The position numbers and the translations under genes were made by a program. From Seison nebaliae (taxonomy: Eukaryota), in the NCBI GenBank assembly GCA_023231475.1, contig JALJEE010001774.1, positions 1 to 64,000 of the forward strand: 64,000 nt of DNA. Direction: 5' to 3'. Below the pieces are notes generated by a model. That model did not search any database. It saw only the letters and a program-made list of their open reading frames with translations, and was not told the DNA's origin. Below are positions 6,482-60,986 of this stretch, piece by piece (the first letter of the stretch is position 1; every line of letters starts with the position of its first letter).

Positions 6482-9210
6482 ATGAATCACACAGATGAAC
6501 ATTCCAATAATTTAGATGGCAATCGATATAATCTCATCTATCAAAATTCAGTATTGGAACATATACACAACTTAGAGAGTTGGGTGAATCGTCGATATGA
6601 TTCGATTTGGTTAATTGTCGGAGCGTTATATTTGACCATAGCCATTGCTTCCATCATTATTAATGTGTTGTCAATTTTAAAAATTAAAAATAATGTCGAT
6701 AAATTAGACAATTATTATATGGCAGCTATTTTTTCCCGTTCCATCGGAATCATGTATTCCTTCTTCTTCATCACTCCAATGGTTTGGTATTTGTTAGAGA
6801 AGGATACTCATAATTATTTCCATGGAATTCCATGTACAGTTCTCGGAATAGTTCACACATTTCTCACTCTAGCTATCGACTATTATTTAGCTCTCGAATA
6901 TATTTTCTGGTTAGTTTTTTTTATATTTTCATATCTTTATTCATTTTAATTTCACTAATATTAATTTAATTTTGTTAATTTAATTTTAATTTATTTTAAT
7001 TTATGTGAACTATATAAAATTTAATTTAATTTAGTTTTATTAATTTCATTCACTTTAATTTAATATTTTTAATTTCATTATTTAATTCTGTTTATCTTTA
7101 TATTTGGCAACCAAAAAATGACGTTTTAGTCTTGTAACATTTATTGAAGAATTTTCATAAAAGAATCTTAAGCTATATGGATCGATATGTTCGATAATAA
7201 TTATTATTTTCTCTCATTAATTTATTATTATTTTATCAATTTATTTTTCCACTACTTTTCTTCATCATCACTTCTCATTAGTTGTTCACAATCCACTGTT
7301 GTACCTAATATTTTCCGCCTATTTTTTCACATTCATAAGAGACGAGAATGTAAATAATCTACAATAGAAAAGTTTAATAAATTTCGTCCATCAACAAAAA
7401 ATTTAGCAGGTCAAATACCATAACATCATTCGACGGTGATGTACTTTTGAAGAATTTTTTATGATTTTTTTATATCAATGTCTTTTTCTTCCAACATTTT
7501 CATTTTTTCACACGAGAATCATGATTTAGATATGTTCAAATAATTTCTTTCAATGAAACTTTATTGAAATTCTTTAATGTCAAAAAAATATTGAAAAAAA
7601 TTTATTTGATTTTATTGTTTCAATGAAACTATATGAGACATCTAAAAGTTTAATAGATGAAATTTAAGTATTTGTCCCATTTCTTTTTTAGGGCTATCTC
7701 TGTCACGTTCACGATGGACGCCAAATCGCAATTGAACATTTTCTTGAGACGAATAATATTCGTGTCATTTCCATTATTATTAATTTATTCGATTGCACCA
7801 GCCTTCTGGTCAGCTCATGTATTTGTACCCGAAATTAATTCTTGTGTATATGATGTAAGAGATTTAGCGGTAGTACTTCTATTCCGAACGATCTTCCAAT
7901 TGTCGATACATATCGTTTTGTACTTATTCTTTCTACTCATTCTACTTTCTATTGTCAAAAATCAACAAACGATTATCAACATGTTACAGTTACAGTATGA
8001 CACTATCCTGTTTAATAAAGATGTCAACTTATTGAAACGTTATTCACTTCAATTGAATGCCTTAAATCAGTCACATACTAGAACTAAAAGTTCGGACAAT
8101 TCGTCATTCCGATTTCATAGAAGGAAAACTTTCGGTAAGTTTTTCAAAGAAAGTGAAGTGAAGTTACGAGAGACGTCAGAGAAGCAGCAGTTAGATGTTG
8201 CCCCAGATAAGGATCAGTTAATGACATATGTTGAACGAGATAACCGTTTGACAGAGATTGAGAAAGACACCGATATCATCAATAAAGAAATGACGATAAC
8301 TAAACAGACTTTATATTTTATGATTAGTCAAGCCGCGTTACATATACTTTATCTACTTCTCGTTCATTTATCCACTCTTCTCACATATTGGAACAACGAA
8401 TCGTTATTAGATCATCTTTATAATTATCAGTATATGATGGTACCGTTACTTTTAGCTAATATCATTTACATGATAATTATTCCATTAATTTTCATTCTAA
8501 TTAATCCCGATTGGATTAACATCACAATTTTCCATAAGGGTAGTAAGAAAATGAAGAAACAAGTCGACGAGAAAACGTCATTGAAACATCATTTGAAAAC
8601 GATCTCTTTGAAAGCTTATGAGATTTTCGACTTAAGAATTAGTTGTTGGCTCTTTTACACCATCAAATCGCCACTCTCTTTACAACAATTTCCTGAGCGA
8701 CATATTTACATTCCTTTAAGGAAAATGAGTGGACAAGTTAATGGTTCGAAATCGAAACACACTCCACAAAAACATTTGACCGAATGGTCATCGAAAAGAA
8801 ACGATCGATATTATAAAAAATTAAGACGATGGAAATTTATCGATCATGAAGATCGTTTTTTACACAATTTCTCAAACCGTTTCCATAACCATCATCCAGT
8901 GACGAAACTGAAAAAATCCGTCTCCGATTCCTATCTAGCTTGGCACCGTCTACATACGGAGAATGGTATCAGAACCATTACAGACGACGAACCAATTAAT
9001 GAGAATCGTGTTCTCTGGAACTTCGATACGGTTCGTGTGAACAAAGCTATCGGACGAGCAGATCGACCGCGTTGCCATAACGACCTGAGAATTTATTGTA
9101 GAAATGTTGAGAATGATTTAGCTACGACAACTTATTCGGATACCGAATGCTTTTCAGTTACCAATAATACCATAAAGAATAATATGTGTAGAACTTGTTT
9201 CTATTTCTAA
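6482..9210 (+). CDS. Highly divergent rhodopsin-class 7TM receptor, 2 exons (intron 6910-7691)
   Basis: TG|GTTAG...TAG|G rebuilds a Trp codon in frame. Seven hydrophobic segments, Cys at the top of TM3 and in ECL2, long ICL3 and C-tail. No DRY or NPxxY motif. Confidence 0.7.
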
Positions 9211-26439: not shown

Positions 26440-29400
26440 GTGCAGATTTTATTTCAAATGAAACGAGTCAAATACAAGTTTGAAAGTGAAGAAAAAAAAT
26501 CGTCAAAATCGATAAAGAATAAACCGATACCGAAAATGACGAAATCGAATTCGTTTGACGAAGTTATGAATGAATCGTTCGATATAATTCCATCAAATAA
26601 ATTCATTGATGGTGCTGCAGAACGATCGATATTCGATGAGAACGAAGAAAATGAATCATTTAAATTCTTCCCTTTAGATCAACAGATCATGAGATTGACT
26701 TGGAATGTGATGGATAGTAAAAATGAAATGGTTCATTGTAACGGGAAATTAATGAAAGATGTTGAAATTAAAACATATCTCAACGCCAATCAATACGGAC
26801 AATCGAGTGGAGAAGAGAAGAAGAATATCGAAGTAAAATTAGTTCGGAATGAATTGATCGATTTTTATCGATTCGCTCCAAAAGAAACTTTCGATTGCAA
26901 TTTGACATATGACACTGGACATATCAATAACCATAAATCAATTTCCACTGCAATTCTTCTTCCTTATATGGAAGAGAAATTCATCTGGGAACCGTTGGAT
27001 GTTAGTAAACCGTCAGGTGAAATGATTGAATTACGTTGTACGGCACCAGCGGCATCACCACCAGCGAAAATTTTCTGGGTGAAAAATGGAAAATTGATCA
27101 TGTTAAGAAATACGATAATTGATAAAGAATTAGAAGAATTTTTAAGTGAACATCAAATTGATAAAATGGAAGATAATTCGAGATATTTGATGATGAATGA
27201 TAATTCGTTAGTGATTCATGAAAGTAACATAAAAGAAGATGATGGCGAATATATTTGTATCGCTCACAATTTGGCTCATACTCGAATGGCGAATGCGGCG
27301 AAAGTGAAAATATTCGAACCAAAAGGTTGGTCGTCATGGACATCGTGGTCGGAGAGTTGTCTGTTGAAGAAACAAATTGATAAATTAGCGATGGAATATC
27401 AAATTGATGGTAAGATATCGAACAATTTCATTAAATCTGATTATCCGTCATCATTGAATGAATTTTGTGAGGAATCGTATCACTTCAAATTCAGGAAATG
27501 TCAAGATAAGTCCTTCAAATCTGGAATAGTTTTATGTGATGGTGGATTGGCAAATTCAACAGAACTCCAACCATGTTGTACAATTTGGTCAGAATGGGAG
27601 AAGAATTTCATGAGAAATGATGAAGATTATGTACCGTCAAAGATTTTTTTGAATGATCATTTAAATTTCCATAAGAGAAAAAAGAAAGAGATTCGTTATC
27701 GAAGTTGTGGAAATTCGAAATTGGAAAGTGAAGTTTTCGAGAGGAAATTGGAAATTTTAGTAAACGAATTTTCTTGTCCGAGAGAGGAAGTGAGAGAATG
27801 TGACAAATTTAATTATTGTGAGAAAGTTCTGTCGAACAGCGATTATGAGAATGAATCGAAATATCTCAATATGTTGAATAATGGAAAATTGGATAGTTTC
27901 AATGGAAATAATAAAATTAATGACGGTCAATATTTGGGTGATTATAATGTGGAGTATGGACGGGAGAAATTATCAGATTATGTATTTGATGGAAATGATT
28001 ATGGAAATGAAGGTGAACGAATTATTGAGAAGGATTTCATTTATAACGATGATTCGTCATTCATTATCGATGATTCTTCATCATCATCATCACCGTCGAA
28101 TGGATTGTTGGAGGAGAAAGTGAAAATAAATTATAATTTATTAGAAAATTTTAAAAATTTAAAAAATTCTAAAATTGCCATTATTTCCAGTGTCAGTTCC
28201 ATTAGTATTATTCTGCTAATATTAATCGTTCTATTGATGTTATTCATTCGGAAGCGATGGCAGAAGAAGAGGAAACAAAATCTTGCATTCCGCAACGAAT
28301 GGAAGCAACAACAATTGCAACAACAACAACAGATGAGACAGGATCATAATTCTAATCAATATCAACATCATAATTTAGAGTTTGGAAATAATATGTATTC
28401 ACATTATAATTCGTCGAATAATGAAACATATACGATGAATAAAAATACGAATGGAAGTAATGTGGAGAGGAAGAAAGGAGGAATGTATGGTTATGTCAAT
28501 CCGTTAGATTATAATCAATTAAGTCGATCACCAGGATTCTTTTCATTCTTAACCAAATCGAAAAGATTAATGAAAAATAAAGATAATGAAGAAGAAGAAA
28601 TTATTTTGAATTCCACATCTAATCAACGTTATGATGGTGAGTGTAATGGAAATAATAAACAGTTTATCGATTATCCATCTTATGAGGAACATAAAAAATT
28701 CGAATCTTATCCATTCACTCAACACAACAATTTATTGACAAATATTGATAATTATATCAATAATTCTTCAGATATCTGTCCACAACACACCTACCAACAC
28801 CATCACCATCATCAACAACAACAACAACAACAACATCATTTAATTCACCATCAACATCAACCACAACAACAACAACATCAACCGAATTTCAATGATAATA
28901 TTCATCATCATTATCATTGTAGTAATGACGGTTCGATGACGGATGGCAATCTTCAATTGTACGATCAAAATAATAATAAATTGGATTCCAATCAAGTGAT
29001 GATGTTGACCGATCCACAAATTATTCAAAAAAATAATAATTCCATTGCATCATCTGATCGTTCCACCAATTTCTCCAATAACAATAAAACAGAATCGATT
29101 ATACTATCAGGAAACAAAAGTGAAGATATTTCCCCATCATCTACTTCACCTCAACAATGTTCCAGTCAAATGAAACCAGAATATTTCATACGTATGTTGT
29201 CGAATGGCAATGATAGTATTTATCATCAATGTATTAATATTAATGATTATTATAGTAATTCAAATGTTCGTCATTGTAACGAGAATCAAGTGAAAAATGA
29301 TTCCGCAAGATTAACATCAACTCGAAGTGTTGCCACCACGAAAGATGACGATGGAAATAATAAGAGAAGGAAGAAAAGATCTTCCAGGAAACGAGTTAAA

Positions 29401-29808
29401 CCGTTGAGACAAGATAACGATTCGATGACGTATGAAACGGCATCGATCACAATGTTGAATTCTTCCGAACTACAACAATACCAAACCACCAAACAACCAG
29501 TTGCACAGTCATTATATTTAGACGGGATTATTCTACCTCATGAAATGAATAATCCACATCATAACAACGATACTGAAATTGAGAATAAACTCGATACGAG
29601 AGATAGTTGTTTCTTCGATCAAACAAACACCATTCAGGATTATACATCCTCCTCCGCCAGTAATAACACTCATGAAGATAAAATATCACCAAATAATCAT
29701 CCGGCATCGAATCGAAAAGGAATGAGTATGAACATTAAACGATTCGAACGAACAAATTCTATTTCAGTAGAAAACGATCCAATATATCAAAGTATTAAGA
29801 CACAATGA
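26440..29808 (+). CDS. UNC-5-like netrin-receptor-type protein (Ig, Ig, TSP1-like, TM, long N/Q/H-rich tail); 5' exon not located
   Basis: HCNGKLM; PYMEEKFIWEPL...IELRCTAPAASPPAKIFWVKNG; DDGEYICIAHNLAHTRMANAAKVKI; GWSSWTSWSESC; TM IAIISSVSSISIILLILIVLLMLFI. This parallels the UNC-5 ectodomain. Confidence 0.75.
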   Translation: MQILFQMKRVKYKFESEEKKSSKSIKNKPIPKMTKSNSFDEVMNESFDIIPSNKFIDGAAERSIFDENEENESFKFFPLDQQIMRLTWNVMDSKNEMVHCNGKLMKDVEIKTYLNANQYGQSSGEEKKNIEVKLVRNELIDFYRFAPKETFDCNLTYDTGHINNHKSISTAILLPYMEEKFIWEPLDVSKPSGEMIELRCTAPAASPPAKIFWVKNGKLIMLRNTIIDKELEEFLSEHQIDKMEDNSRYLMMNDNSLVIHESNIKEDDGEYICIAHNLAHTRMANAAKVKIFEPKGWSSWTSWSESCLLKKQIDKLAMEYQIDGKISNNFIKSDYPSSLNEFCEESYHFKFRKCQDKSFKSGIVLCDGGLANSTELQPCCTIWSEWEKNFMRNDEDYVPSKIFLNDHLNFHKRKKKEIRYRSCGNSKLESEVFERKLEILVNEFSCPREEVRECDKFNYCEKVLSNSDYENESKYLNMLNNGKLDSFNGNNKINDGQYLGDYNVEYGREKLSDYVFDGNDYGNEGERIIEKDFIYNDDSSFIIDDSSSSSSPSNGLLEEKVKINYNLLENFKNLKNSKIAIISSVSSISIILLILIVLLMLFIRKRWQKKRKQNLAFRNEWKQQQLQQQQQMRQDHNSNQYQHHNLEFGNNMYSHYNSSNNETYTMNKNTNGSNVERKKGGMYGYVNPLDYNQLSRSPGFFSFLTKSKRLMKNKDNEEEEIILNSTSNQRYDGECNGNNKQFIDYPSYEEHKKFESYPFTQHNNLLTNIDNYINNSSDICPQHTYQHHHHHQQQQQQQHHLIHHQHQPQQQQHQPNFNDNIHHHYHCSNDGSMTDGNLQLYDQNNNKLDSNQVMMLTDPQIIQKNNNSIASSDRSTNFSNNNKTESIILSGNKSEDISPSSTSPQQCSSQMKPEYFIRMLSNGNDSIYHQCININDYYSNSNVRHCNENQVKNDSARLTSTRSVATTKDDDGNNKRRKKRSSRKRVKPLRQDNDSMTYETASITMLNSSELQQYQTTKQPVAQSLYLDGIILPHEMNNPHHNNDTEIENKLDTRDSCFFDQTNTIQDYTSSSASNNTHEDKISPNNHPASNRKGMSMNIKRFERTNSISVENDPIYQSIKTQ

Positions 29809-45956: not shown

Positions 45957-47284
45957 TTATTCCGTGCCGATCAATTCATTAACTAGAAAATGGAAAATTA
46001 TAAGAAAATTAAATTTTTAAAAATTTCAAAACTGTTCATTGGCATCTCATCGATCTGTGTCGAATAGAATTGTTCGATGTCACGTAATAATTGAATATCA
46101 TCACTTCGAGCGAAATTAATTGCGACTCCTTTTCGTCCAAATCGTCCCGAACGACCAATACGATGAATATATAATTCTCGATTATTTGGTAGATCATAAT
46201 TGATAACTAATGAAACAGAAGGAACATCTAGTCCCCGTCCACAAACATCGGTTGATATGAGAACTCGTCTAAAATAAAAAGAGAAAAATTTAAATTTAAA
46301 AAAATTTTTAAAAAAATTTTTAAAAAAATTTGAAAAGAAATTTAACGTTTTTGCATCTCGAAATTGTTTGACAATTCCTTCACGTACTTGTTGTTTCATA
46401 TCGCCATGTATTGATGATACAGTAAAATTAGATTCTTCCAATTGATTCGCTAACCATTCCACTTTCCGTCGAGTATTACAAAAAACTACTGCTTGAGCTA
46501 CCGTCACAGAATCATAAAGATCACATAAAGTTTCAAATTTCCATTCTTCCCGATCTACAGCAACGAAGAATTGTCGAATACCTTCCAATGTCAATTCGTC
46601 ACGATTCACCAAAATTCGAATTGGTTCCGTCATAAATTTATTTGTGATTTCAATAATTTCTCTCGGTAAAGTGGCGGACAAGAGAACAACTTGTGTCTCT
46701 GGTGGAAGATGACGATAAATAGCATGAATTTGTTCACGGAATCCTTTATTCAACATCTCGTCCGCTTCATCTAACACGAGAATAGAAATATTTGACGTTC
46801 TCAAATGTCCTCGTTCTATCATGTCAATTACACGACCAGGTGTCCCACTTATCACATGTTGACCATAATCTAATTTCCTGATATCTTCATTCAAATTCTT
46901 CCCACCAATACACGAATGACATTGCACGTTCATATAGTCACCTAAAGCTAACATGACACATTGGATCTGTTGGGCTAATTCACGTGTGGGAGACAAGACT
47001 AATGCTTGACAATCACGATGTTCAATTTGAAGTCGCTGCAATATGGAAATACAATAAGTGGCAGTTTTTCCAGTTCCTGATTGTGATTGTGCAATTACAT
47101 CTCGACGACGAATTATTGGACGGATGGCACGTTGCTGAATTGCTGACGGTTTCTCAAATCCATATGAATAAATGCCACGAAGTAAATTTCGGTTCAATCT
47201 CATATCATCGAAACTACGATAGACACCAATATTCTCATTCGTCTTAAAGTCTTTTTCGCTTAAATCATTTGTAATCGTTGGCAT
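45957..47284 (-). CDS. EIF4A3: DEAD-box RNA helicase eIF4A-III (exon junction complex core), 3 exons
   Basis: [76 protein letters not shown]. Introns at 46269-46346 and 45983-46032; the spliced C-terminus is MPMNINELIGTE*. Confidence 0.95.
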
Positions 47285-47754: not shown

Positions 47755-50700
47755 ATGTTTTTGCTGAAGCAACGTTCATTATACAGGAATTTATCCCGTT
47801 GTCGTATTGCCAGTACACAACGAGACTTCCAAACTTCGAAATTATTATCCAATTATGATAAGAAGAAAGAAAAAATAGTTCCCATAAACAAATTACTGGT
47901 TGCTAATCGAGGTTCCATATTCTCTTGTCTTTTTTTTTTTATTTCTAATCATCTTCATCAAATTTTTCTTTTTTTCTTATTTACTAAATAAATTATTGAA
48001 ATTGATTGATAAATAAATTTAATTTAAAAAAAATCTCAATTTGTTTACAGGTGAAATTGCGATAAGAATCTTTCGAGCTTGTACTGAACTTGGAATTCGA
48101 ACGGTTGGAATTTATTCGCCGCAAGATTTGGGACAAGTTCATATCATCAAAGCTGATGAGTCGTATTGTATTGGAGAGAATTTGGAACCATTACAAGCTT
48201 ATCTTTCTGTCGATCAAATTATTGAGACGGCAAAAGAAAATGGTGCAGATGCTGTGCATCCAGGATATGGTTTCTTATCGGAAAGAAGTGATTTTGCTAA
48301 AGCTGTGGAAGACGCTGGATTAATTTATGTTGGTCCAAAATCATCAGTTGTGAAATTGATGGGTGATAAAGTGGAAGCGAGAAAATGTGCAATCGCTGCA
48401 AATGTTCCAGTCATTCCAGGAACGGATCAACCATTAATATCAAGTGAAGATGCTCTGGAATTTTGTGAAGAACATGGAATGCCAATTATGTTGAAAGCAG
48501 CATATGGTGGTGGTGGTCGTGGAATGAGAATTGTGAAAAGACTAGAAGATTTAGAGTCTCAATTTAATGCAGCTTTTAGTGAAGCGAAATCAGCATTTGG
48601 AAATGGAAGTTTATTTATCGAACGATATATGGAACGACCAAGACATATTGAAGTGCAGATTTTAGGAGATAAATATGGAAATATTGTTCATTTATATGAG
48701 AGAGATTGTAGTGTTCAACGACGACATCAAAAAGTCATCGAAATGGCACCAGCAGCAGCTTTGTCACAACAACAACGTGACGCTTTGACAAATGATGCGT
48801 TAAAATTGGCGAAATATGTGAATTATTCGAATGCAGGAACTGTTGAATTCTTGTTAGATACGAAAACGAATAAACATTATTTTATTGAAGTGAATGCTCG
48901 ATTACAAGTGGAACATACGGTTACAGAAGAAGTAACAGGAATAGATCTCGTTCAATCTCAAGTTCGAATAGCAGAAGGACATTCATTAAGACAATTGGAA
49001 TTAACACAACCAAATATTTCAATTAGTTCATGTGCAATCCAATGTCGAATGACAACAGAAGATCCAACGAAAAATTTCCAACCAGATACTGGTCGTATCG
49101 ATGTATTTCGTTCGGGTGAAGGTTGTGGAATTCGAATTGATTCAGCTAGTGCATTCTCTGGTGCCATCGTCTCACCATATTATGATAGTTTATTAGTGAA
49201 AGTGATAGCAAGAGCAAAAGATCATCGAGGAGCTGTCAATAAAATGTTGAGAGCATTGAAAGAATTCCGTATTCGTGGTGTGAAGACGAATATTCCATTT
49301 TTGTTCAATGTATTAAATCATCCTAAATTCAATGGGAAAGATATTGGGAAAGTTGATACATTGTTCATTGACGAACATCCCGAACTCTTCAAATTGCCAT
49401 GGGGACAAAATCGAGCGAATAAAATTTTGAAATATTTAGGTGAAGTCACTGTGAATGGTCCGACTACACCGATGGGAGTTCCTGATGTCAAACCAGCAAA
49501 TGTTCAACCAATCGTTCCACCAACAGATCGTAATACAAAATTGACAGGTTGGAGAGACATTTTAACGAAGGAAGGACCTCATGCATTCGCTCAAGCAATT
49601 CGTTCTCATAAACCGTTATTATTAATGGATACGACAATGAGAGATGCTCATCAATCTCTTTTAGCTACAAGAGTTCGATCATATGATATTTATAAAATCG
49701 CTCCATATGCAGCACAAGAATTAAATGGATTATTAGCATTGGAGAATTGGGGTGGTGCCACATTCGATGTCGCTATGAGATTTTTATATGAATGTCCTTG
49801 GGAAAGATTAATTCGTATGAGAGAATTAGTTCCAAATATTCCATTCTCAATGTTACTTCGTGGTGCAAATACGGTAGGATATACCAATTATCCTGATAAT
49901 GTACTCATCAAATTCGCCGATTTATCAGTCAAATTAGGAATGGACATTTTCCGTATTTTCGATTCTTTAAATTATATGCCCAACATTAAAGCTGGTATGG
50001 AAGCGGTGGGAAATGCTGGTGGTGTAATCGAAGCTGCTGTTTCTTATACAGGAAATATTGCTTCGACGAAAGAAGGACAGAAATATACTTTAAAATATTA
50101 TACAGATATCGTTGATGAAATGGTAAAATCTGGTACTCATATTATCGGAATTAAAGATATGGCAGGTTTATTAAGACCACAAGCAGCGAAAATTCTTATC
50201 GATGCCATTCGACAGAAACATCCAGATACACCAATACATTTACATACTCATGATACATCAGGTTGTGGTGTAGCTACTCATTTAGCGGCAGCTGAAGCTG
50301 GTGTAGATATCGTCGATGTAGCATGTGATACAATGTCTGGAATGACATCTCAACCATCAATGGGTGCGATAATTGCTGCTTTAGAAAATACACCGAAACA
50401 AACAGATATCAATTTAGAAGATACTTTCCCTTATTCGACATATTGGGAACAAGCGAGAAATCTCTATAAACCATTTGAATGTACTCATACAACGAAAAGT
50501 GGAAATTCCGATGTATTCTTTAATGAAATTCCTGGTTCTTTTTCAATTTCATTGTATTTTCTTATTTCTTATAATTTTCATTGAAATTAGGTGGACAATA
50601 TACTAATCTACAATTCCAAGCATATTCATTAGGCTTAGGAGAACAATTCGAAGAAGTGAAGAAAGCATATATTGATGCCAATCAATTATTGGGAGATATC

Positions 50701-51746
50701 ATTAAAGTTATCATCTTTTTTCTCATCTCATTTATACTCTCTATTTAGGTAACACCATCAAGTAAAATTGTTGGAGATTTAGCTCAATTTATGGTACAGA
50801 ATAAATTGACGAAAGAAGAAGTAGAAGAGAAAGCAGACGAATTAAATTTCCCACAATCCGTCGTCGATTTCTTCCAAGGTAACATCGGAGAACCATATGG
50901 AGGTTATTTTACCCAATATTCATTTCCATCAAATTTACCATCAAAAAAATTTTTTTTTCAATTTCTATCAAAATTTAAATTTCCATTTTAAATTTATATT
51001 TTTGTTATTTAGGATTTCCGGAGGAATTAAGAAAGAAAGTTCTCAAAGGAAAACCAATCGTTCATGGTTACATAATTTTAATTTTTTAAGGATTTTTTTT
51101 TATTTCAATTTTATTTTCAGGAAGACCTGGCGAACATATGGAACCGTTGGATTTCGATGAAGTGGTGAAAGAGTTGAAGAAGATTGATGTGGATTCTCAT
51201 GAACCAATTAAAGAGAAAGATATCATAAGTGCAGCATTATATCCACAAGTGACGAAGGACTTTCTTCGAATGAGAAACGAATATGGTCCAATGGAGAAAT
51301 TGGAGACTCGAGTCTTTTTTACCGGTCCAGAAATATCGGAAACTGTCACATTAGAGATAGAGAAAGGTAAACGATTAACGATCAAATTGATTGCAATCGG
51401 TGATCTAAATATGAAGACTGGAGAGAAGGAAGTCTTCTTTGAAATGAATGGACAAATTCGATCGATTATGATCAAAGACAAAAAAGCGTCATCGAATTTG
51501 AAAATTCATCCGAAAGCGAATGAAAACGATATTGGATCAATTGGTGCTCCAATGCCTGGATCAGTGATGTCAGTCGCCGTCAAAGTTGGAGATAAGGTAA
51601 AGAAAGGCGATTCATTATTAGTAATGAATGCGATGAAAATGGAAACTAATATCACCGCACCGTTCAATGGAAAAGTAACGGAAATTTTAGTTCAATCAGG
51701 TGACAAATTGAGTGGCAACGATTTATTATTGAAGATTAGCGAATAA
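47755..51746 (+). CDS. PC: Pyruvate carboxylase, mitochondrial, 6 exons
   Basis: Presequence, [16 protein letters not shown], biotin carboxylase motifs, [24 protein letters not shown] and the biotinyl AMKM motif. Introns at 47912-48050, 50535-50590, 50707-50748, 50903-51012 and 51067-51120. Confidence 0.97.
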
Positions 51747-53430
51747 ATTTAATTTGGAATTAGAGAAAATTTTAGTTGTGTTTAGTCTCAATAAATTTCC
51801 ACAGAACAAACATATAATAAGAACATTTAAGCAAAATAGTTGATAGTTGAATTTTTTGAGAAGAAATTTCTTTTTTCTTTAAATAAAATTTTATTTATTT
51901 TTATTTATAATTTTAATTAGGTTGTCGTTGTCGTTGTTGTTGTTGTTGTTGCTTCATCCAAGATGACCATTATCATTGAATATGTTTCATGTAAATTTAC
52001 AAAGAAAATTATTGAATTTAGTTGACGTCGAAATAATGAGGAAACTGAATAATCGACGTCCAATTCAGATAGAGGTGAATGGCAAAGCGACCAATTACTA
52101 TTAGAATGACGTCAGAGAAGGAAATGAATTAAAGAGGTTTGAAGGATGAACATCGTCAAAACGATTTGAAAGTGAAAGACTATTAGAGAATTTATGATTT
52201 AACGTACTGGTGGAGATTGAATGAATTGTGAGATTGATCGGATATTATTTCATTTGGATAATCGACAACTTTTTCTTTTTTTGATGATAAACTATTAAGC
52301 AATCATGAAAGTTGGAAATGAAAGTGAATCAATAAATTTTACGATACTCATCGTCCAGTGAGGACGGATGGCGACGTTGAGAAGGTGAAGTTCATGAAGG
52401 TGAAAAGGAAAGGTTGTTGAGAACGTGTGAAAATTGAAGAATATTAGGTAGAGTTAGATAAATAACCGGAGAAGTAGTAGAAGAAGATGATGATGAATAA
52501 GAAGAAGCAATTTATCTCTTGATCCAATCGAAAATAAAGTAGAACGAAAATGGGAAGTGAAATATAAGTGAGGATGGAGTGAGGATGGAGGACGAATCAC
52601 GATATGGCTAGATCGACAATGACGACAACAATCGGGAGAAAAGGAAACTCTATATGTGGATTTAAGTGAGGATTGGACGCATCGGGTCGAATGATTGACC
52701 ATGTGCTATTATTATTGATGTATTTGAGAAGATCTGAAGCGAATAGTCGCTTATCAACTAAAATTATTGATGTTGATCATGTTAACGATAAGATGGGAAT
52801 AATTAATATTGCATATAGAAATATAATGAAGATGATCATGATGACGATAATGATGAATATGATGAAATAATGATTGTAAGAATACGAATAATAAATTTAT
52901 CGATCGATTCGACACTATATATAATGAACGTTGTCTTCCTAATTTTTCGAATTAAATTAAAAGTTTCGGGATGTGACACTGAGAGCGATTACAGATGAAA
53001 ATGAATAAATTTCTTTCGTCAAATGGACATCATATTAATGACAATGATTTGGGAGATATAAATGTAGGAATAGACGGATGGCAGACTACTAGAAATGTCA
53101 TTGAATTTTGAAAGATTATGTCAAACTGTACGATTGATTAAGTTACAAATCGAATGACGCGTTTCAATGTTAAATAATCCCTTCTCTTGCATATAAGACG
53201 TAAGATCGTGGAGAATCTTTTCTATCTTTATATTCTTATTCTTATCGAAAATAAGTTGAGTTTGTGAAAAGATATTCTTCTTCAATATTCATTCACCAAC
53301 TTCTTGTCGATTGAAGATATTAAAGAACTTTCTAATTCTATTCTATTATTCTATTATTCTTTTTTCCATTTTTTTATAGAAAGAGACTCTAATTAATATT
53401 TTATTTTAAAACTTCAAAAAAAAACGAATA

Positions 53431-54861
53431 ATGAATTTTCTTAGCCAAATGATGGGAGGTATGGGAGGTATGCCCGGTATGATGGGCGGTATGGGCGGTA
53501 TGCCAATGATGGGAGGTATGGGCGGTATGCCAATGATGGGTGGTATGCCCGGTATGATGGGAGGTATGGGAGGTATGCCAATGATGGGAGGTATGGGAGG
53601 TATGGGAATGGGCGGTATGCCAATGGGTGGTATGGGAATGGGAGGTATGGGAATGGGTGGTGGACAACCATTTACATCTATTCCTCTCCAAGGACAAGTA
53701 ATGAATAATCCTTCTGCTTATCGTTTAGTCATGTCCCGTTCAGGAGGAATGGGAGGTGGCGGCGGTTTCCCCACATTATCTTCCTTAGTTGGAGGAGGAA
53801 TGGGTGGATATGGAGGCATGGGAGGTATGCGAGGAGGAATGGGAGGAATGGGAGGTTATGGAGGTGGTTGTGGAATGGGAGGAGGTATGGGAGGAGGTAT
53901 GGGATTGGGAGGCATGGGAGGTATGGGAATGGGAGGTGGAATGGGAGGAGGAATGGGAGGTGGATGTTGCAGTGGTGGATCAAGCGGTGGATATGGCGGT
54001 TCAAGCGGTGGATATGGAGGTTCTAGTGGAGGTTATGGAGGTGGTTATGCTGCCCCTGCTCCCGCTATGGCTTATTCTGCACCCGCACCGGCAATATCTT
54101 ATGCACCAGCACCAGCTCCAATGCCAATGCCAATGCCAATGCCAATGCCAGCTCCAATGCCAATGGCCGCTCCAATGCCAGCACCAATGCCGATGCCAAT
54201 GCCAATGCCAGCACCAATGCCCATGGCAGCTCCAATGCCAATGCCAGCACCAATGCCAATGCCAGCTCCAATGCCAATGCCAGCACCAATGCCAATGCCA
54301 CAACAATCCGGCGGTGGTTGTTGTCCATGCCCACCACCTGCTCCAAGAGGAGGAGGAGGAGGATGTGGAATGGGAGGAGGAATGGGTATGGGAGGAGGAA
54401 TGGGAGGAATGGGAGGTGGATGTGGAGGAGGAATGGGTGGAGGTATGGGTGGTATGATGCCGGGAATGGGATTAGGTGGAGGTATGTCTCCAGGAATGGG
54501 AGGTGGAGCAATCTCTATGGGATTCCGACCAAACCCAGTTCTCGGTCATGTTGTTGTCAGAACGATGGGCAATGTTCCACCACAAGCAATGATGGGAATG
54601 GGAGGTATGGGTATGGGTGGTATGCCCGGTATGGGAGGTATGGGAGGTATGCCCGGTATGATGGGAGGCATGGGAGGTATGAGTCTTCCAGGATATCCAA
54701 TGATGGGCGGTATGATGCCCGGTATGGGAGGTATGGGAGGTATGATGCCAGGTATGATGGGAGGTATGCGACCAATGATGCCCGGTATGGGAGGTATGGG
54801 AGGTATGGGAGGTATGATGCCCGGTATGATGGGAGGTATGGGTATGCCACGTATGTTCTAA
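53431..54861 (+). CDS. Gly/Met-rich, Pro-Met-repeat low-complexity protein, no signal peptide
   Basis: 476-aa ORF whose repeats vary mainly at third codon positions. Shares two non-repetitive motifs with 56600-58159. Confidence 0.85.
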   Translation: MNFLSQMMGGMGGMPGMMGGMGGMPMMGGMGGMPMMGGMPGMMGGMGGMPMMGGMGGMGMGGMPMGGMGMGGMGMGGGQPFTSIPLQGQVMNNPSAYRLVMSRSGGMGGGGGFPTLSSLVGGGMGGYGGMGGMRGGMGGMGGYGGGCGMGGGMGGGMGLGGMGGMGMGGGMGGGMGGGCCSGGSSGGYGGSSGGYGGSSGGYGGGYAAPAPAMAYSAPAPAISYAPAPAPMPMPMPMPMPAPMPMAAPMPAPMPMPMPMPAPMPMAAPMPMPAPMPMPAPMPMPAPMPMPQQSGGGCCPCPPPAPRGGGGGCGMGGGMGMGGGMGGMGGGCGGGMGGGMGGMMPGMGLGGGMSPGMGGGAISMGFRPNPVLGHVVVRTMGNVPPQAMMGMGGMGMGGMPGMGGMGGMPGMMGGMGGMSLPGYPMMGGMMPGMGGMGGMMPGMMGGMRPMMPGMGGMGGMGGMMPGMMGGMGMPRMF

Positions 54862-56599
54862 GACATCTTAAGAACAACCGTCCACTATATATCCTATTTC
54901 CATTATTATTATTAGTTTATTATATCTGTAGTCAAATCAACCACATAGCCAATTCCATCAAATTCAATAGTTATCTACTTTCAATCTCAAACCTTCATTC
55001 TTAGAATCATGATAGAATAATATTATCAATCCATTATCAATTTTACTAACCAAATATGGTTCCAACAATTATTAGTCTCTTTAGTTTCATCGAATTCACT
55101 CGATCAATTTCCAAATATTCATCATTAGAAAAAATATTTGAGTCTCTTTATCTTAATTCTTATAGTCAAATTATTCGATTATCAATATTTATAAAATATA
55201 CCCAAAAACAGAAACTACCCGTCTTATCGTTTATTACACAAATTCCATCCAATATCTTTAGTTAGAGCTATTGCAATCGTTTCAAACCCAAACAATTATT
55301 CAAGTAAGTTGTTATTCTTTTCCTGAGAAAAGAATTATGAAGAAATCCTACGAACAAACCAGATTAGACAATTGATTAAAATCGATTCATTTTGCACAAT
55401 AATCAATGATTATCAATTTTATTTGGAAAGAAACCATTTTTCTTCATTCTATTCCATTTTATTCTTCATTTATTATTATCATTCAATATTGCTCCGTCGA
55501 ATATGTGTCTTCATATATTGTCGATGTCGAGCATAATTATTAAGAGCAATTAAAGAAAATAAATTTGCCTACCTATTTCTCTTTCAACATCTTCCTCTTT
55601 CACTTTCACAATTACTCTGATGATTGTCTGTCGGCTTCTTCTTCTACCACTGAATCTTCGAAATTGTTCATTTCTTTTTATTACGATGAAACAAATATAC
55701 AAATTGAAACTATGAAACATGCTTTAAATATTTCGAATTTTTCATTCATTTTCTTCTCATTCTAAATACATATTATACAACAGATTATTTTCGAGTAAAT
55801 TTCAATTGAAAAAAAGAAGAAAATTTCCTTCATTTTCCTCAAAATTTGTTAGAAAACTTTTGAAATAATATTTAATTGTATCACATCTTAATATGTCGAT
55901 CGTTCAGTATAAGGAAGTTGAAATCAATATTAAAATATATTAATTTAGTATAAGGTGAATCGTACTTTCTCCATTTACTTTTTAACTTGTTTAATTTAAC
56001 AATCGGAACTTTCTCAAAACAAAACGTGAAACGAATCTTTCATCGTTCATAAGGCAAAATTCGATCAATGTTATGCAACTTTAACTGCAATAATGCTGTA
56101 GTCAATGTTTGCTTATATCATGTTAGTTTCTCATGTCGAATACTTAGATATGATGACAAGATAAAATTCTCGCTAAAAATCAAGTAGAAACGGATTACAC
56201 ATTTATTGGCTGAACGAAACGATAATTCGAATAGTAAAATTGATCACTTTCTGACGTTCGGCATCGGAGAACGAAGGATATTTTTCATATTCTTGTTGAA
56301 CTTTTCACATTTTAACACATTTTTCCTCAACAAATGTCTCCATATCTTCCTACCGACATTTATCCATATTTGTTAAAGGAAATGAAGTTCTCATTATTTG
56401 GAAGAAGATTTCTTGATTGATTTGTTTCATAAGAATATTCATAATAGAAACAAAAGCGATTGTCATCCTTTTCAATTATCATACATTCCCCGTTTTCTTT
56501 TTCTTCTTCTTTTTTAATAGATCCTCTTAAATAAAGTTTCCTTCATTCAAATCATTTCATACTTGCTGATCAATTTTCACATAATCTTATTGTTTCGAT

Positions 56600-58159
56600 A
56601 TGTCTCTAATTACACAATTGTTATTTCCAACAATGAGTACAGCTAATGGATTATTGAGAAACAGTTCAGGTTTCTTCCCCAATTCCGGAATGTCTAACTT
56701 TTATAATTCGACTTTTCCAAACCTTCTTACCGCTAATGCGACACCACTTCCAATGGGTATACTTAACGGATTTTTCCCATCAAATGTCCTACCTCAAATG
56801 GGTATGCCGATTAATGGCGTTCCCTTCACTTCCTTACCAATCCAGGGATTAGTGATGAATACTCCATCCGCTGCCAGAACTATCTTATCAAGAAGTTCGG
56901 GTATTGGCGTTTATGGTATGAATGCCGGTTCTTTTGGAAACCATCAAAACTTAGGAAATTATGGTTTGCCAATGATGTCTTCATGCTCTGTTGGCAATTT
57001 CAATAACAATTTAATGAATATGAATAATTGTTATGGTATGGAAGGAATGAATTATTATAATCAATTGAACACTTATAATCAAACATCGCCACAATGGAAT
57101 CGTCAAAATTATCAACAATATCAGTCATATCCACAACCGAATTTCCAACAATCGAATTTCCAACAACCGAATTTCCAACAACCGAATTTCCAACAATCAA
57201 TCGATATGTCTCCTCAAACTATTCAAATGTTAACAGCAATGGCACCAATGATGCCACAAATAAATGAGATTCAAAAGAATCTCTATAATCCCTCCATGAT
57301 TTTCAGTGATCATAAAAGAGGTTTCGCCTATTCTCCTCCCGTACCACCACGCGAACCAATGGAAACGGCCATAATGCCGATAGCTATAACTATACCAAGA
57401 AGCAAATTACCATCATATGATTCCCAGTATTCACCTGATAATGATATTTCATCATCCATCTCATCATCATTCGAAGATTATGGTAATTCTTATGGATTCC
57501 ATCCCAATCTCTCATATGCGTCAATTCCATTAAAAGGATTACAATCCTCTATTAGTCAACCGATGTCAATGCCATATTATGGTGTCACATCATTCATCAA
57601 TCAGAATATGTCCAACAATCAATCACCGTCAGTAATTCCATCAAATACTTTCAATTCCTCACAATCCTTCCAACCCATTTCAACTTACCCACAAAAGCTT
57701 GATAATAATTTAATGAATTATTCTTCATTGACACCGTTTAATAATTCTTCAACAGTTCCTCAAACAACTTATTCATATTATAATTCAAATAAACACTATC
57801 CATCTCAACCATCCAACATTCCTCCTCAAACAACACTTAATCAGTATCAATATAATAACACGCAACAACCGTTTCAAGATGATTTCGTCGAATTCAACAA
57901 TTCCTCAAATTACAATCTTCAACCAAATAGTCACTTATCGTCCTTAACTACTACTCCGTCGTTGTTTAATCAAGGTGAATTGAGTGGTCTGATGCCGTTG
58001 GTAAATAATCCGTTCGAGAACGGCGCCATCCTCTCACCCACAGTAATTTCATGCGGATTTCAACCTTCACCAATTTTGGGTCATATTAAAATGAGATATT
58101 TCCCTAAAGGTCACGGTTTACGAATGGCGACTAGTCTTCCTCGTACGTTCTGGGAATGA
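56600..58159 (+). CDS. Asn/Gln/Ser/Pro-rich low-complexity protein, paralog of 53431-54861
   Basis: 519-aa ORF with QQPNF repeats. Shares the PFTS.P.QG.VMN.PSA..SRS.G and IS.GF.P.P.LGH motifs. Confidence 0.85.
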   Translation: MSLITQLLFPTMSTANGLLRNSSGFFPNSGMSNFYNSTFPNLLTANATPLPMGILNGFFPSNVLPQMGMPINGVPFTSLPIQGLVMNTPSAARTILSRSSGIGVYGMNAGSFGNHQNLGNYGLPMMSSCSVGNFNNNLMNMNNCYGMEGMNYYNQLNTYNQTSPQWNRQNYQQYQSYPQPNFQQSNFQQPNFQQPNFQQSIDMSPQTIQMLTAMAPMMPQINEIQKNLYNPSMIFSDHKRGFAYSPPVPPREPMETAIMPIAITIPRSKLPSYDSQYSPDNDISSSISSSFEDYGNSYGFHPNLSYASIPLKGLQSSISQPMSMPYYGVTSFINQNMSNNQSPSVIPSNTFNSSQSFQPISTYPQKLDNNLMNYSSLTPFNNSSTVPQTTYSYYNSNKHYPSQPSNIPPQTTLNQYQYNNTQQPFQDDFVEFNNSSNYNLQPNSHLSSLTTTPSLFNQGELSGLMPLVNNPFENGAILSPTVISCGFQPSPILGHIKMRYFPKGHGLRMATSLPRTFWE

Positions 58160-58753
58160 AATGAAGAAGAATCAATAATTAACTGAAAGAATTTCCTAAA
58201 GAATCTTTTTCCACCTTCGTCTTCTCCTTTTTCATCATTAGCTCATCGAACATTAATTGTAAAGGAATCCAATTCCTTCAAACAAAAAACACTCTAATTA
58301 TTTTCTAGACAGACACTAAAAAATCATTCAGTAATCTTATGTTACTGTTGACTTCTTATTCATCTTATTCAACGTAACATCGCAACGAAACGTTTCCAAA
58401 TGCATCATTTCCTGAAATTGGAAACGTTTCCAAATATAAAAATTCCAATAGATTTCTTTCATCATTGTCATCATTATGTGATCGGAACTCTTCTACTCTC
58501 TCTCCGTTTCTTTCTCGCCTTATCATTCTACTCATCATTCCGTTACGAACATCATGTTGACTTAGTTTCCGATGAATCTTTATGAATTTTTAACGTGTAT
58601 TAAAAAGAAAATTTTAGAAATAAATCAAACTTTTCTTTCTACGTAACAACTTAAGAATTGCCAAGTATTTCTTTAAAAGTAATTTTTCTTAAAAAATCCG
58701 TTTATTGAAAACATCATTCTCAACTCAATATCATCATTTATCATTGATTGAAA

Positions 58754-59192
58754 ATGCATAAACTTCTTCCAATCATCTGTCTCTTATCTGTCACTATCTC
58801 ATCTGTTTACTCCATCCAATGTTACCTCTGTGCACCAGGAACTGCCGATTGTGATTTACAAGGTAAAAAGTTCAGAAAGAGTCCATTGACTTATACAACA
58901 CATTGTCAAGGAAGTTGTGCGGTTAGTGAATACTTGAAGTTCTCTCTTTTTCTTATTCCTCCTTTAGAAACGATGGGTAAAAGATCCACTGACAAATAAA
59001 CGACAGATTATGAGAACATGTGACGTTCCCGGTTGTGCTAATATTACCAATCACGAAGTCAACACCGGATTATATATCTATGAAACTCATTGTTGTCAGA
59101 ATAAAGACTTTTGTAATAACTCACCAACAATCACCAAATCAGTATTTCTGATCATTTCAACAGTACTTTTATCAATGATCCTTCGATTTTAA
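58754..59192 (+). CDS. GPI-anchored Ly6/uPAR three-finger protein, 2 exons (intron 58922-58967)
   Basis: Signal peptide, IQCYLC, GSCAK, IMRTC, CCQNKDFCN and a hydrophobic C-terminal GPI signal. The intron joins the two ORFs in frame. Confidence 0.88.
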
Positions 59193-60191
59193 TTGAGCTA
59201 ATGTGAACATTTATTTTCTTGTTGTCTCGCCGATTTATCTATTTTCCAATTCTACTCAATCACTCCAATGTCTTTTGTCATTAAATGTTATCCAAAAAAA
59301 CTTCAAACAAATTTTTTCTATGTATCACATTTTTTAAGAACAAGAACTTTAAATGAAAAATTTAATTTTCATTCAATATCAGTCATTGTAGAAAGATAAT
59401 AACTATTCTCCCATATTATCTGAAATATAAAGAAATAATAATATCTGAAAGTTTTCGTTCTCAAATATAAAGAATGATTAATTTCTATCTAATAATTATT
59501 TATCATTCTATTGGTCATTGAGCCGCCGAGCAATATCGCCGGATAATGATGGAGAACAACTTTCGAAGAACCATAATTACGGTGAAGAAGAATAAAACTG
59601 TAATCTGAAATATGTCATAAGCCAAAGGAACAGGAAAAAAAATTATGTTTCAGGAACAAATTTTTTTGTCTAACTTTTATCATTTGTTCCAGAACAGCTG
59701 TTAATTATTCTCATCTAACAATTTCTAAAAGTTCCTAACTTTGTTCCATATCATTAGTCAATTTACACAGTTATTCATGTGGTCATTAGCGTTGTATTGT
59801 TTCGATTGTAGATAATTTTTTATATTATTTTATTTTTAAATTTATTTCCCAAAAACTTTAAATATAAGGATACAATAGGAATATAAATAAAAATTAAATA
59901 CGATTAAATAGATACGATATAAATAAATTAATAGTTCTTTTCCTCTAAAAAAGTTGAGACATAAACGTATGAAAGTGAGAAAAAAATTGAGAACTTTTCG
60001 AAATGTTAATAACGGGTTGAGAACGGTAAGAAAAGAAGAAAACAAAATTTTTTAATTATATCTATCTACATGAAATTAACAATTTGTTTGACTATATATG
60101 TTCGATTAATGATATCTATTTCATTTATGATTATATTGATTTTTTGAAAGAAGATGTGAATAGAAACTGAATGGTTTCAATGTATTAACAA

Positions 60192-60986
60192 TCAATAATC
60201 ACAATTATGATATTTTTCGTTGAAAGTGCTTAAAAATTCTTTTGATATACAAGAAGATTGTGCGTTGAATTGAGGAATTTGGGTAAAACGACAGTTTTTC
60301 GGAAGATGTTTCAAAAATCGTCCGTCCATTAAAATTTTATTAATAGAATCAACATTCATTCCTTCTTTCGTTATCGTTCTGGTAATAGTGGGATGTTTTT
60401 TCTGGAATTGCTGATATATCCAAATTTTCCGTTTGATACTTTCCAAATAATCAGGAAATACTTTTATATAGTATCTCATAAAACCCGAATATTTGTACGA
60501 AGTAAGATTCCGACGATAATTCATAATAAAACGCGATTTGGGAAATAATTTCAGCAGAAATTCTAATTCGTATAATTCTTTAAATCTGATCTCTTTGAAA
60601 CCGAGTACATTATAATTGTCTGTGTTATCAACTCCAACGAGAAGGTCCAAAATCATTCTTCTAAAATATCGACTTCTCTCTTTCCTATCCGTTTTATCGT
60701 CGTCATTCTGATGAGCGAATCTTAAAACATAATAAATATTTCTAATGTGCATCATCGCATTTTTGTTTTCCCCATCAATAAAATAATTTGGTAAAGAATT
60801 TAATAAATATCTCAATGTTGTACTTCCACTTCTTCCAACTGAAACGATGAACAACATATTCTTGTTAAAAGGTCGAACTGATATCGATTTGTTTATTGTG
60901 CGAGGTGGACGATAATCGGTATATTTGAGGTATATGATATAAGTCAAAGATGAATATAATAATAGGTAAAGGAATTTGATTTGCAT
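60192..60986 (-). CDS. Type II membrane-anchored sulfotransferase (P-loop sulfotransferase family), intronless
   Basis: N-terminal hydrophobic anchor; 5'-PSB-like loop FIVSVGRSGSTTLRYLLN; GFKEIR; LFPKSRFIMNYRR (3'-PB-like). Confidence 0.8.
   Translation of the reverse strand: MQIKFLYLLLYSSLTYIIYLKYTDYRPPRTINKSISVRPFNKNMLFIVSVGRSGSTTLRYLLNSLPNYFIDGENKNAMMHIRNIYYVLRFAHQNDDDKTDRKERSRYFRRMILDLLVGVDNTDNYNVLGFKEIRFKELYELEFLLKLFPKSRFIMNYRRNLTSYKYSGFMRYYIKVFPDYLESIKRKIWIYQQFQKKHPTITRTITKEGMNVDSINKILMDGRFLKHLPKNCRFTQIPQFNAQSSCISKEFLSTFNEKYHNCDY

Follow-up and report, generated by a model that had tools for sequence, protein, structure and literature searches.

Two tandem paralogs with shared short motifs and divergent low-complexity spacers in Seison nebaliae: candidate intracellular structural proteins

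The window analyzed here is a 64,000-nucleotide stretch of the genome of the syndermatan Seison nebaliae (assembly GCA_023231475.1, contig JALJEE010001774.1, positions 1 to 64,000). It contains two neighboring genes, A and B, whose products share two short motifs in the same order, separated by spacers of very different composition. Gene A (53431–54861) consists of a single coding exon specifying 476 residues (~44 kDa), and gene B (56600–58159) of a single coding exon specifying 519 residues (~58 kDa). The genes are 1.7 kb apart on the same strand and they, as well as all of their features described below, are on the forward strand. Motif 1 spans 53668–53748 in A (residues 80–106) and 56822–56902 in B (residues 75–101). 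Motif 2 spans 54511–54561 in A (residues 361–377) and 58046–58096 in B (residues 483–499). A sequence-only reading of this DNA had reported both open reading frames (ORFs) and the four motif positions, and these coordinates are exact.

In both motifs, the similarity between A and B exceeds what is expected by chance. In motif 1, 18 of 27 residues are identical between A and B, with 14 of those 18 specified by different codons; for motif 2 identity is 10 of 17 residues, five of which use different codons. Alignment of the whole proteins produces a Smith–Waterman score of 119; three shuffling schemes with 2000 runs apiece never attained it, their highest scores being 71, 87 and 76. When scored separately, the motifs produce values of 98 and 63, respectively, and neither was equaled in 10,000 global or 10,000 local shuffles. 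The motif borders were picked after the fact and the whole-protein test is free of such a choice. Comparison with shuffled sequence had been proposed as a means to refute the similarity, which instead was significant, and the presence of the same two motifs in the same order was confirmed. Further, the A/B pair is the only match at E≤0.05 among 153 pairs formed from the 18 stop-free stretches of at least 200 residues in the window. The next best pair has an E-value of 1.4, so that the window contains no third paralog at this threshold.

Codon usage indicates that A and B diverged long ago. Conserved residues with degenerate codons use the same codon at 8 of 27 positions, compared to 10.3 expected if codons were fully randomized, and third-position identity in the motifs is 0.36 versus an amino acid identity of 0.64. 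When neutral divergence was simulated to a third-position identity of 0.39, amino acid identity averaged 0.10 and did not exceed 0.30 in 2000 runs. As the motifs were chosen for their similarity, this contrast is inflated, though not to the extent observed. Synonymous sites in the motifs have reached saturation and 64% of the residues are still conserved, which identifies A and B as old paralogs with protein-level selection acting on the motifs. Stop codons number 3–23 in the other five frames of A and 29–47 in those of B. Tandem arrays cover 1028 of the 1431 nucleotides of A, with all periods being multiples of 3, and the motifs, including motif 1, are positioned in gaps between arrays. Two shadow ORFs (53810–54457 and 54327–55004) are by-products of these repeats, the conserved motifs being in the frame of A.

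The anatomy of the two proteins is quite distinct. A is 37% Gly, 25% Met and 14% Pro, and has no Asp, Glu or Lys; it contains 7 Gln, 8 Arg and one His. Its eight Cys form two groups which flank a central Pro/Met/Ala rod (54052–54303, residues 208–291; P 42%, M 27%, A 24%). From the N-terminus, the layout is a Gly/Met spacer, motif 1, a Gly/Met/Ser/Tyr spacer with Cys at 147, 179 and 180, the rod, a Gly/Met spacer with Cys at 297, 298, 300, 312 and 331, motif 2 and a Gly/Met/Pro tail. B is 13.5% Ser, 12% Asn, 10% Pro and 8% Gln with 12% aromatic residues; Q+N is 21%, Met 5.6% and Gly 5.8%, and there are 3 Cys. Its spacers are of an Asn/Gln/Ser/Pro/Tyr type with NFQQ repeats. The spacers are disordered-looking and, by the measured compositions, belong to two different classes.

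Proline/glycine composition is reported to divide elastomeric from amyloid-like chains (10.1101/2024.12.03.626628). The combined measure 2P+G is 65 for A and 27 for B. The numerical line between the two kinds of chain is near a 2P+G of 60, and with the line placed there, A and B fall on opposite sides of the divide.

Spacer turnover had been described as complete and this requires modification in view of two features of B. One is a block enriched in Pro, Met and Ala (57206–57385, residues 203–262), which occupies the same relative position as the rod of A; this likeness is weak, being equaled in 50 of 5000 shuffles. The other is a set of half-copies of motif elements at 57488–57547, where a motif-2-like GFxPN is followed by a motif-1-like YASIPLKG (BLAST E-values of 3.5–7). 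Two further copies of GFxP[NS] start at 56669 and 56768, bringing the number of occurrences in B to four, one of which is inside motif 2; this count was not matched in 20,000 shuffles. The pattern [FY]xxxP[LIV]xG occurs three times in B, a count matched in 1 of 20,000 shuffles, and the two patterns adjoin at residues 297–316. Both patterns were defined after inspection, so these shuffle counts overstate significance. The extra half-copies seem to suit short, repeated binding sites better than a single, split, folded core.

Motifs 1 and 2 both contain an FxxxP-hydrophobic-xG element. The possibility that they are ancient repeats of each other was not supported and is at most a lead, as 547 of 5000 column shuffles scored as high and hhalign assigned a probability of 0.3%. 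A central AYSAPAP/AYSPPVP pair was rejected as a third motif, since it was not significant (56 of 500).

The termini of the two proteins had also been described as alike, and this holds only weakly, at about 1 in 200 against the composition of B. The first 8 residues of A (53431–53454) resemble those of B (56600–56623) and the C-terminal PRxF of A (54847–54858) has an echo in B at 58139–58150. Random draws from the composition of B equaled the N-cap likeness in 1051 of 200,000 cases and the C-cap likeness in 233 of 40,000; a second draw count gave 11 of 200,000 for the N-terminal 8 residues and 12 of 40,000 for PRxF. The public protein P0001 corresponds to the ORF of B starting at Met12. As the first 8 residues of B resemble the N-terminus of A, the sequence suggests that Met1 is the true start.

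Both coding regions are intronless, as had been claimed, and a splice-acceptor-like site precedes each ATG. These likely acceptors, each a pyrimidine tract followed by AG, are at 53360–53379 for A and 56493–56520 for B, that is, 51 and 79 nucleotides upstream of the respective ATG. An in-frame stop is present between the acceptor-like site and the ATG in both genes, and GTT donors are positioned at fitting distances upstream. The nearby pyruvate carboxylase gene (47755–51746, forward strand) shows an unusual donor preference, with all five of its introns, of ~42–139 nucleotides, beginning with GTT. Its product matches a protein attributed to Seison nebaliae at 100%, and the other 119 matches listed are at 65–68%. 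Because of the acceptor-like sites, the in-frame stops and donors placed as in the pyruvate carboxylase introns, each gene likely has a 5′ non-coding exon. No RNA families were found within 52000–60000.

The absence of a signal peptide was borne out by hydropathy, the highest 19-residue values being 0.78 and 1.06 for the two proteins. By hydropathy, for which no dedicated signal-peptide predictor was used, the N-termini of both are not hydrophobic and membrane segments are lacking. In addition, enumeration of upstream exons yielded no plausible spliced signal-peptide exon: B has no in-frame extension, and the single one for A lacks hydrophobic character and would bypass the better of the acceptors.

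Searches for relatives returned little beyond B itself. A match of the motifs to a known domain had been named as a refutation, and none was found: Pfam contains no family matching A or B at E≤1, nor any matching the four motif fragments at E≤10. Against the PDB, motif 1 has no real match, with eight neuropilin-2 matches at E-values of 0.31–0.93, and motif 2 has none; the ESM Atlas had no usable match for either protein. Word-based protein searches recovered only B (1 of 1 and 1 of 24 candidates). A profile search with motif 1 against 1,835,955,588 representative proteins produced two matches, B and one false match. The latter, P0002 (3689 residues, E-value of 1e-6), was rejected: its score is the sum of seven identical 4.6-bit matches in a bacterial surface repeat protein that lacks motif 2. 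P0002 has seven near-identical SdrD_B/SpaA-like units of ~320 residues behind a planctomycete-type leader, and is unrelated to A and B.

The sensitivity of the profile was evaluated with simulated relatives, of which 300, 250, 67, 5 and 0 of 300 were found at 6, 9, 11, 13 and 15 changes per 30 positions, respectively. On this scale A and B differ at 11, and the null result is limited because the profile would overlook the majority of relatives separated by the A-to-B distance. As motif 2 is too short at the scale of the protein collection (E-values above 1000), the profile null rests on motif 1. DNA scans with motif 1 yielded 0 of 154 stretches in metagenomes, 1 of 41 in viral contigs (L002) and 2 of 33 in prokaryote genomes (L003 and L004), and motif 2 yielded 1 of 68 in metagenomes (L001). 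These four were dismissed as chance matches: at library scale all have E-values of at least 6, the two motifs do not occur together in any of them and two are in stop-free stretches of only 43 and 41 codons.

Exact look-up, word search and profile all failed to recover protein A from the public protein collection, likely because its repeats are masked. It is absent though its neighbors, B and pyruvate carboxylase, are present, so A is likely an unannotated gene. In the literature searched, mostly outside subscription journals, no description of these genes or of sequence-defined syndermatan lamina or fiber-bundle proteins turned up among the papers listed; work on lamins of Seison (PMC10125929) has no bearing on A and B. 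The two proteins form a genuine family of two members which, although apparently undescribed, is of a broadly familiar kind, and in which the wholesale change in spacer chemistry between paralogs is unusual.

AlphaFold gave no support for folded motifs: in both proteins, predicted local confidence (pLDDT) stays under 50 across motif 1 and motif 2. The longest predicted helix is 8 residues in B, and there is none in A; a low-confidence helix spans residues 89–96 of B, inside motif 1. Low-confidence models such as these fit with disorder and would be compatible also with folding on binding.

How could proteins of this type function? Several known systems are comparable in part. The vertebrate SEDC genes, which include loricrin and SPRR, are described as clustered; a non-coding exon precedes their only coding exon, and the proteins have low-complexity interiors rich in Gly/Ser/Cys/Pro and short conserved ends (PMC11816140, PMC13487633). 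A and B are similar in being tandem and in having a single coding exon, and would be so in the likely 5′ non-coding exon (PMC13487633); Cys pairs and a GGSSGGYGG run of loricrin-like type are present in A as well. They differ in that no sequence relation was found, the host is an invertebrate, A is 25% Met and the conserved elements are internal motifs of 27 and 17 residues. In addition, the Lys and Gln transglutaminase sites at both termini are missing, with A having 0 Lys and 7 Gln. Descent from the tetrapod EDC locus does not apply to a syndermatan, and there are no EDC-type genes among the neighbors scanned.

The corneous beta-proteins of birds and reptiles, in which a short conserved segment is reported to form the filament and variable low-complexity flanks the matrix (PMC8072682), are by analogy the best working model for the core-plus-spacer idea of the sequence-only reading. 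There, the core is a single beta segment of 34 residues, as opposed to two motifs 280–400 residues apart; no Pfam or PDB match points to such a core in A or B, for which a beta structure or filament would be hypothetical. Lineage restriction, low complexity and patches of positional identity are shared with IDPA, IDPB, IDPC and APPG of the nematode pharyngeal cuticle, for which phase separation is predicted (PMC9629831). Those proteins are secreted and no sequence relation was found; between A and B, moreover, the spacers are of entirely different composition. Finally, there is no long coiled-coil rod of the keratin-like, intermediate-filament type, as shown by the absent Pfam match and a longest predicted helix of 8 residues. 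If structural, A and B would by analogy work like loricrin-type SEDC proteins and corneous beta-proteins, without membership of either group.

We tentatively favor a reading that is quite possible, if short of probable: the old tandem paralogs A and B of Seison nebaliae specify lineage-restricted, likely intracellular and likely mostly disordered structural (matrix) proteins. The sequence-only reading had envisaged a split assembly core with interchangeable spacers. From it, paralogy, selection on the motifs, the lack of a known domain, the lack of a signal peptide by hydropathy and the two spacer classes stand. Folding of the motifs, pairing of motif 1 with motif 2, spacers that are interchangeable or tune a material, and the site of action found no support in any test. 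In the mechanism proposed, the motifs, which are partly short aromatic–Pro–Gly elements, would dock A and B onto a common partner or polymer, which might be a filament or the two proteins mutually. The bulk state of each protein would then be set by its spacers, with A acting as an uncharged, rubber-like Gly/Met/Pro chain, for which the two Cys groups could provide a lock, and B as a sticky Gln/Asn/Ser/Tyr chain. Co-assembly of the two would produce a composite. We infer every step here, from motif to docking, co-assembly and location.

The most likely sites would be a dense internal layer or fiber bundles of the syncytial epidermis, or sperm dense bodies, with none preferred over the others. 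In syndermatans the epidermis is described as syncytial and as containing a dense internal layer, and in seisonids epidermal fiber bundles and sperm dense bodies are described too (PMC3919803). For a monogonont, an intracytoplasmic lamina has been illustrated (PMC13403294), and the lorica of rotifers is stated to be scleroprotein (PMC10246822).

Several points weigh against a structural role. Only two members are known, and protein searches of low sensitivity found none in other rotifers or acanthocephalans, where relatives of a conserved body-wall protein might be expected. Rotifer lorica proteins are keratin-like filaments, unlike A and B. The composition of B, with only 3 Cys, is like that of many regulatory Q/N/S/P disordered proteins, and A, having no Lys, is without loricrin-type cross-link acceptors. 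The AlphaFold models have mean pLDDT values of 38.2 (A) and 36.0 (B) and a predicted template-modeling score (pTM) of 0.15 for both; being from single sequences with no alignment behind them, they are weak either way. The structural assignment is a putative one, derived from sequence. An extended version of this reading is unlikely: that A and B are the first sequence-defined syndermatan family building the intracellular skeleton of the syncytial epidermis, in which motifs 1 and 2, through their common FxxxP-hydrophobic-xG, would pair into a split polymer core. In this version, the material would be graded by an exchange of spacers between paralogs, some rubber-like and others prion-like, and the family would be the invertebrate counterpart, within a living syncytium, of loricrin and beta-keratin.

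The main rival to the structural reading is that A and B are disordered scaffold or regulatory proteins, for instance of a germ granule, an RNA granule or a co-activator, with the motifs serving as short linear sites for one common partner and the spacers drifting freely, without a material role. We regard this as rather unlikely. B is prion-like in its Q+N and aromatic content and NFQQ repeats, the four GFxP[NS] copies are what repeated binding sites would give, and the half-motifs fit a scaffold as well as they fit a structural protein. The motifs are short and have no confident fold, and germ-plasm scaffolds are themselves fast-evolving and lineage-restricted. Against it, regulators rarely resemble A, which is built symmetrically around its Pro/Met rod, with a Cys group and then a Gly/Met stretch on either side, and which has neither acidic residues nor Lys; moreover, Pfam identifies no RNA-binding or other domain. 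Release of an extracellular material, such as a jaw ligament, egg shell, spermatophore or glue, without a classical signal peptide is unlikely. It would be in keeping with the GGMGG spacers of A, which resemble the abductin repeat GGFGGMGGGX (PMC9999432), and with the ease with which A satisfies the glycine part of the silk-like definition, at least 25% Gly per 80-residue window (PMC4944945), having 59% over residues 107–207. The likeness to abductin, a scallop hinge elastomer, is confined to di- and tri-glycine blocks with Met in A; abductin is reported to be short and extracellular, with ~1% Pro and a likely signal peptide (PMC9999432), versus 476 residues, 14% Pro and none by hydropathy in A. 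B has nothing in common with abductin and is not Gly-rich, with at most 10% Gly in the segments measured. The signal peptide that is part of the silk-like definition is missing from both proteins by hydropathy, and none is gained through plausible splicing.

Two further explanations were considered. A Met-rich sponge for copper, silver or oxidants is very unlikely: it would suit the Met content of A, and it leaves the shared motifs unexplained, given the 5.6% Met of B and the one His of A. In addition, there are no metal-handling neighbors among the ORFs scanned. Least plausible of all, and hardly credible, is that these are not two functional genes, with tandem repeats that happen to leave a frame open in the case of A, or with B as a decaying copy. 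The extent of the arrays in A, its absence from the protein collection and the fact that no transcript was seen could be taken in this sense. Against it are the saturation of synonymous sites at 64% amino acid identity, the 519 open codons of B in AT-rich DNA with many stops in its other frames, array periods in A that are all multiples of 3 and the existence of B as a public protein.

The remainder of the window contains genes of other kinds. Downstream of B, a two-exon gene (58754–59192, forward strand; exons 58754–58921 and 58968–59192) specifies a small, secreted, Cys-rich, Ly6/uPAR-like protein with a CCxxxxCN end and a hydrophobic tail; its Pfam matches to CD59 (E-value of 8e-4) and Activin_recp (E-value of 0.027) are weak and below curated cut-offs. 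This is followed by a single-exon sulfotransferase on the reverse strand (60192–60986; Sulfotransfer_3, E-value of 4.5e-8). A DEAD-box helicase ORF on the reverse strand (45998–47284), which we take to be eIF4A3-like, seems to read through a short, in-frame intron rich in F/K/N. Further upstream, 26458–29808 (forward) specifies a membrane protein with Ig domains (Pfam Ig_3), presumably of UNC5-like layout, which ends in a long tail rich in N/Q/H. The forward ORFs at 1302–2708 and 7657–9210 (468 and 517 residues) have no Pfam match at E≤1, and the latter, together with 6482–6949, resembles part of a divergent seven-helix receptor.

At present the importance of the finding is moderate. A and B are a clean natural case in which paralogs hold on to short motifs while spacer chemistry shifts from elastomer-like to prion-like. 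As A is apparently missing from public protein sets, genes of this kind may be overlooked generally. The internal layer of the syndermatan body wall, the epidermal fiber bundles and the sperm dense bodies are traits used to link seisonids with the parasitic acanthocephalans, and no sequences of their proteins turned up in the literature searched. A and B supply concrete motifs for searches of rotifer and acanthocephalan genomes, and peptides for searches of insoluble fractions.

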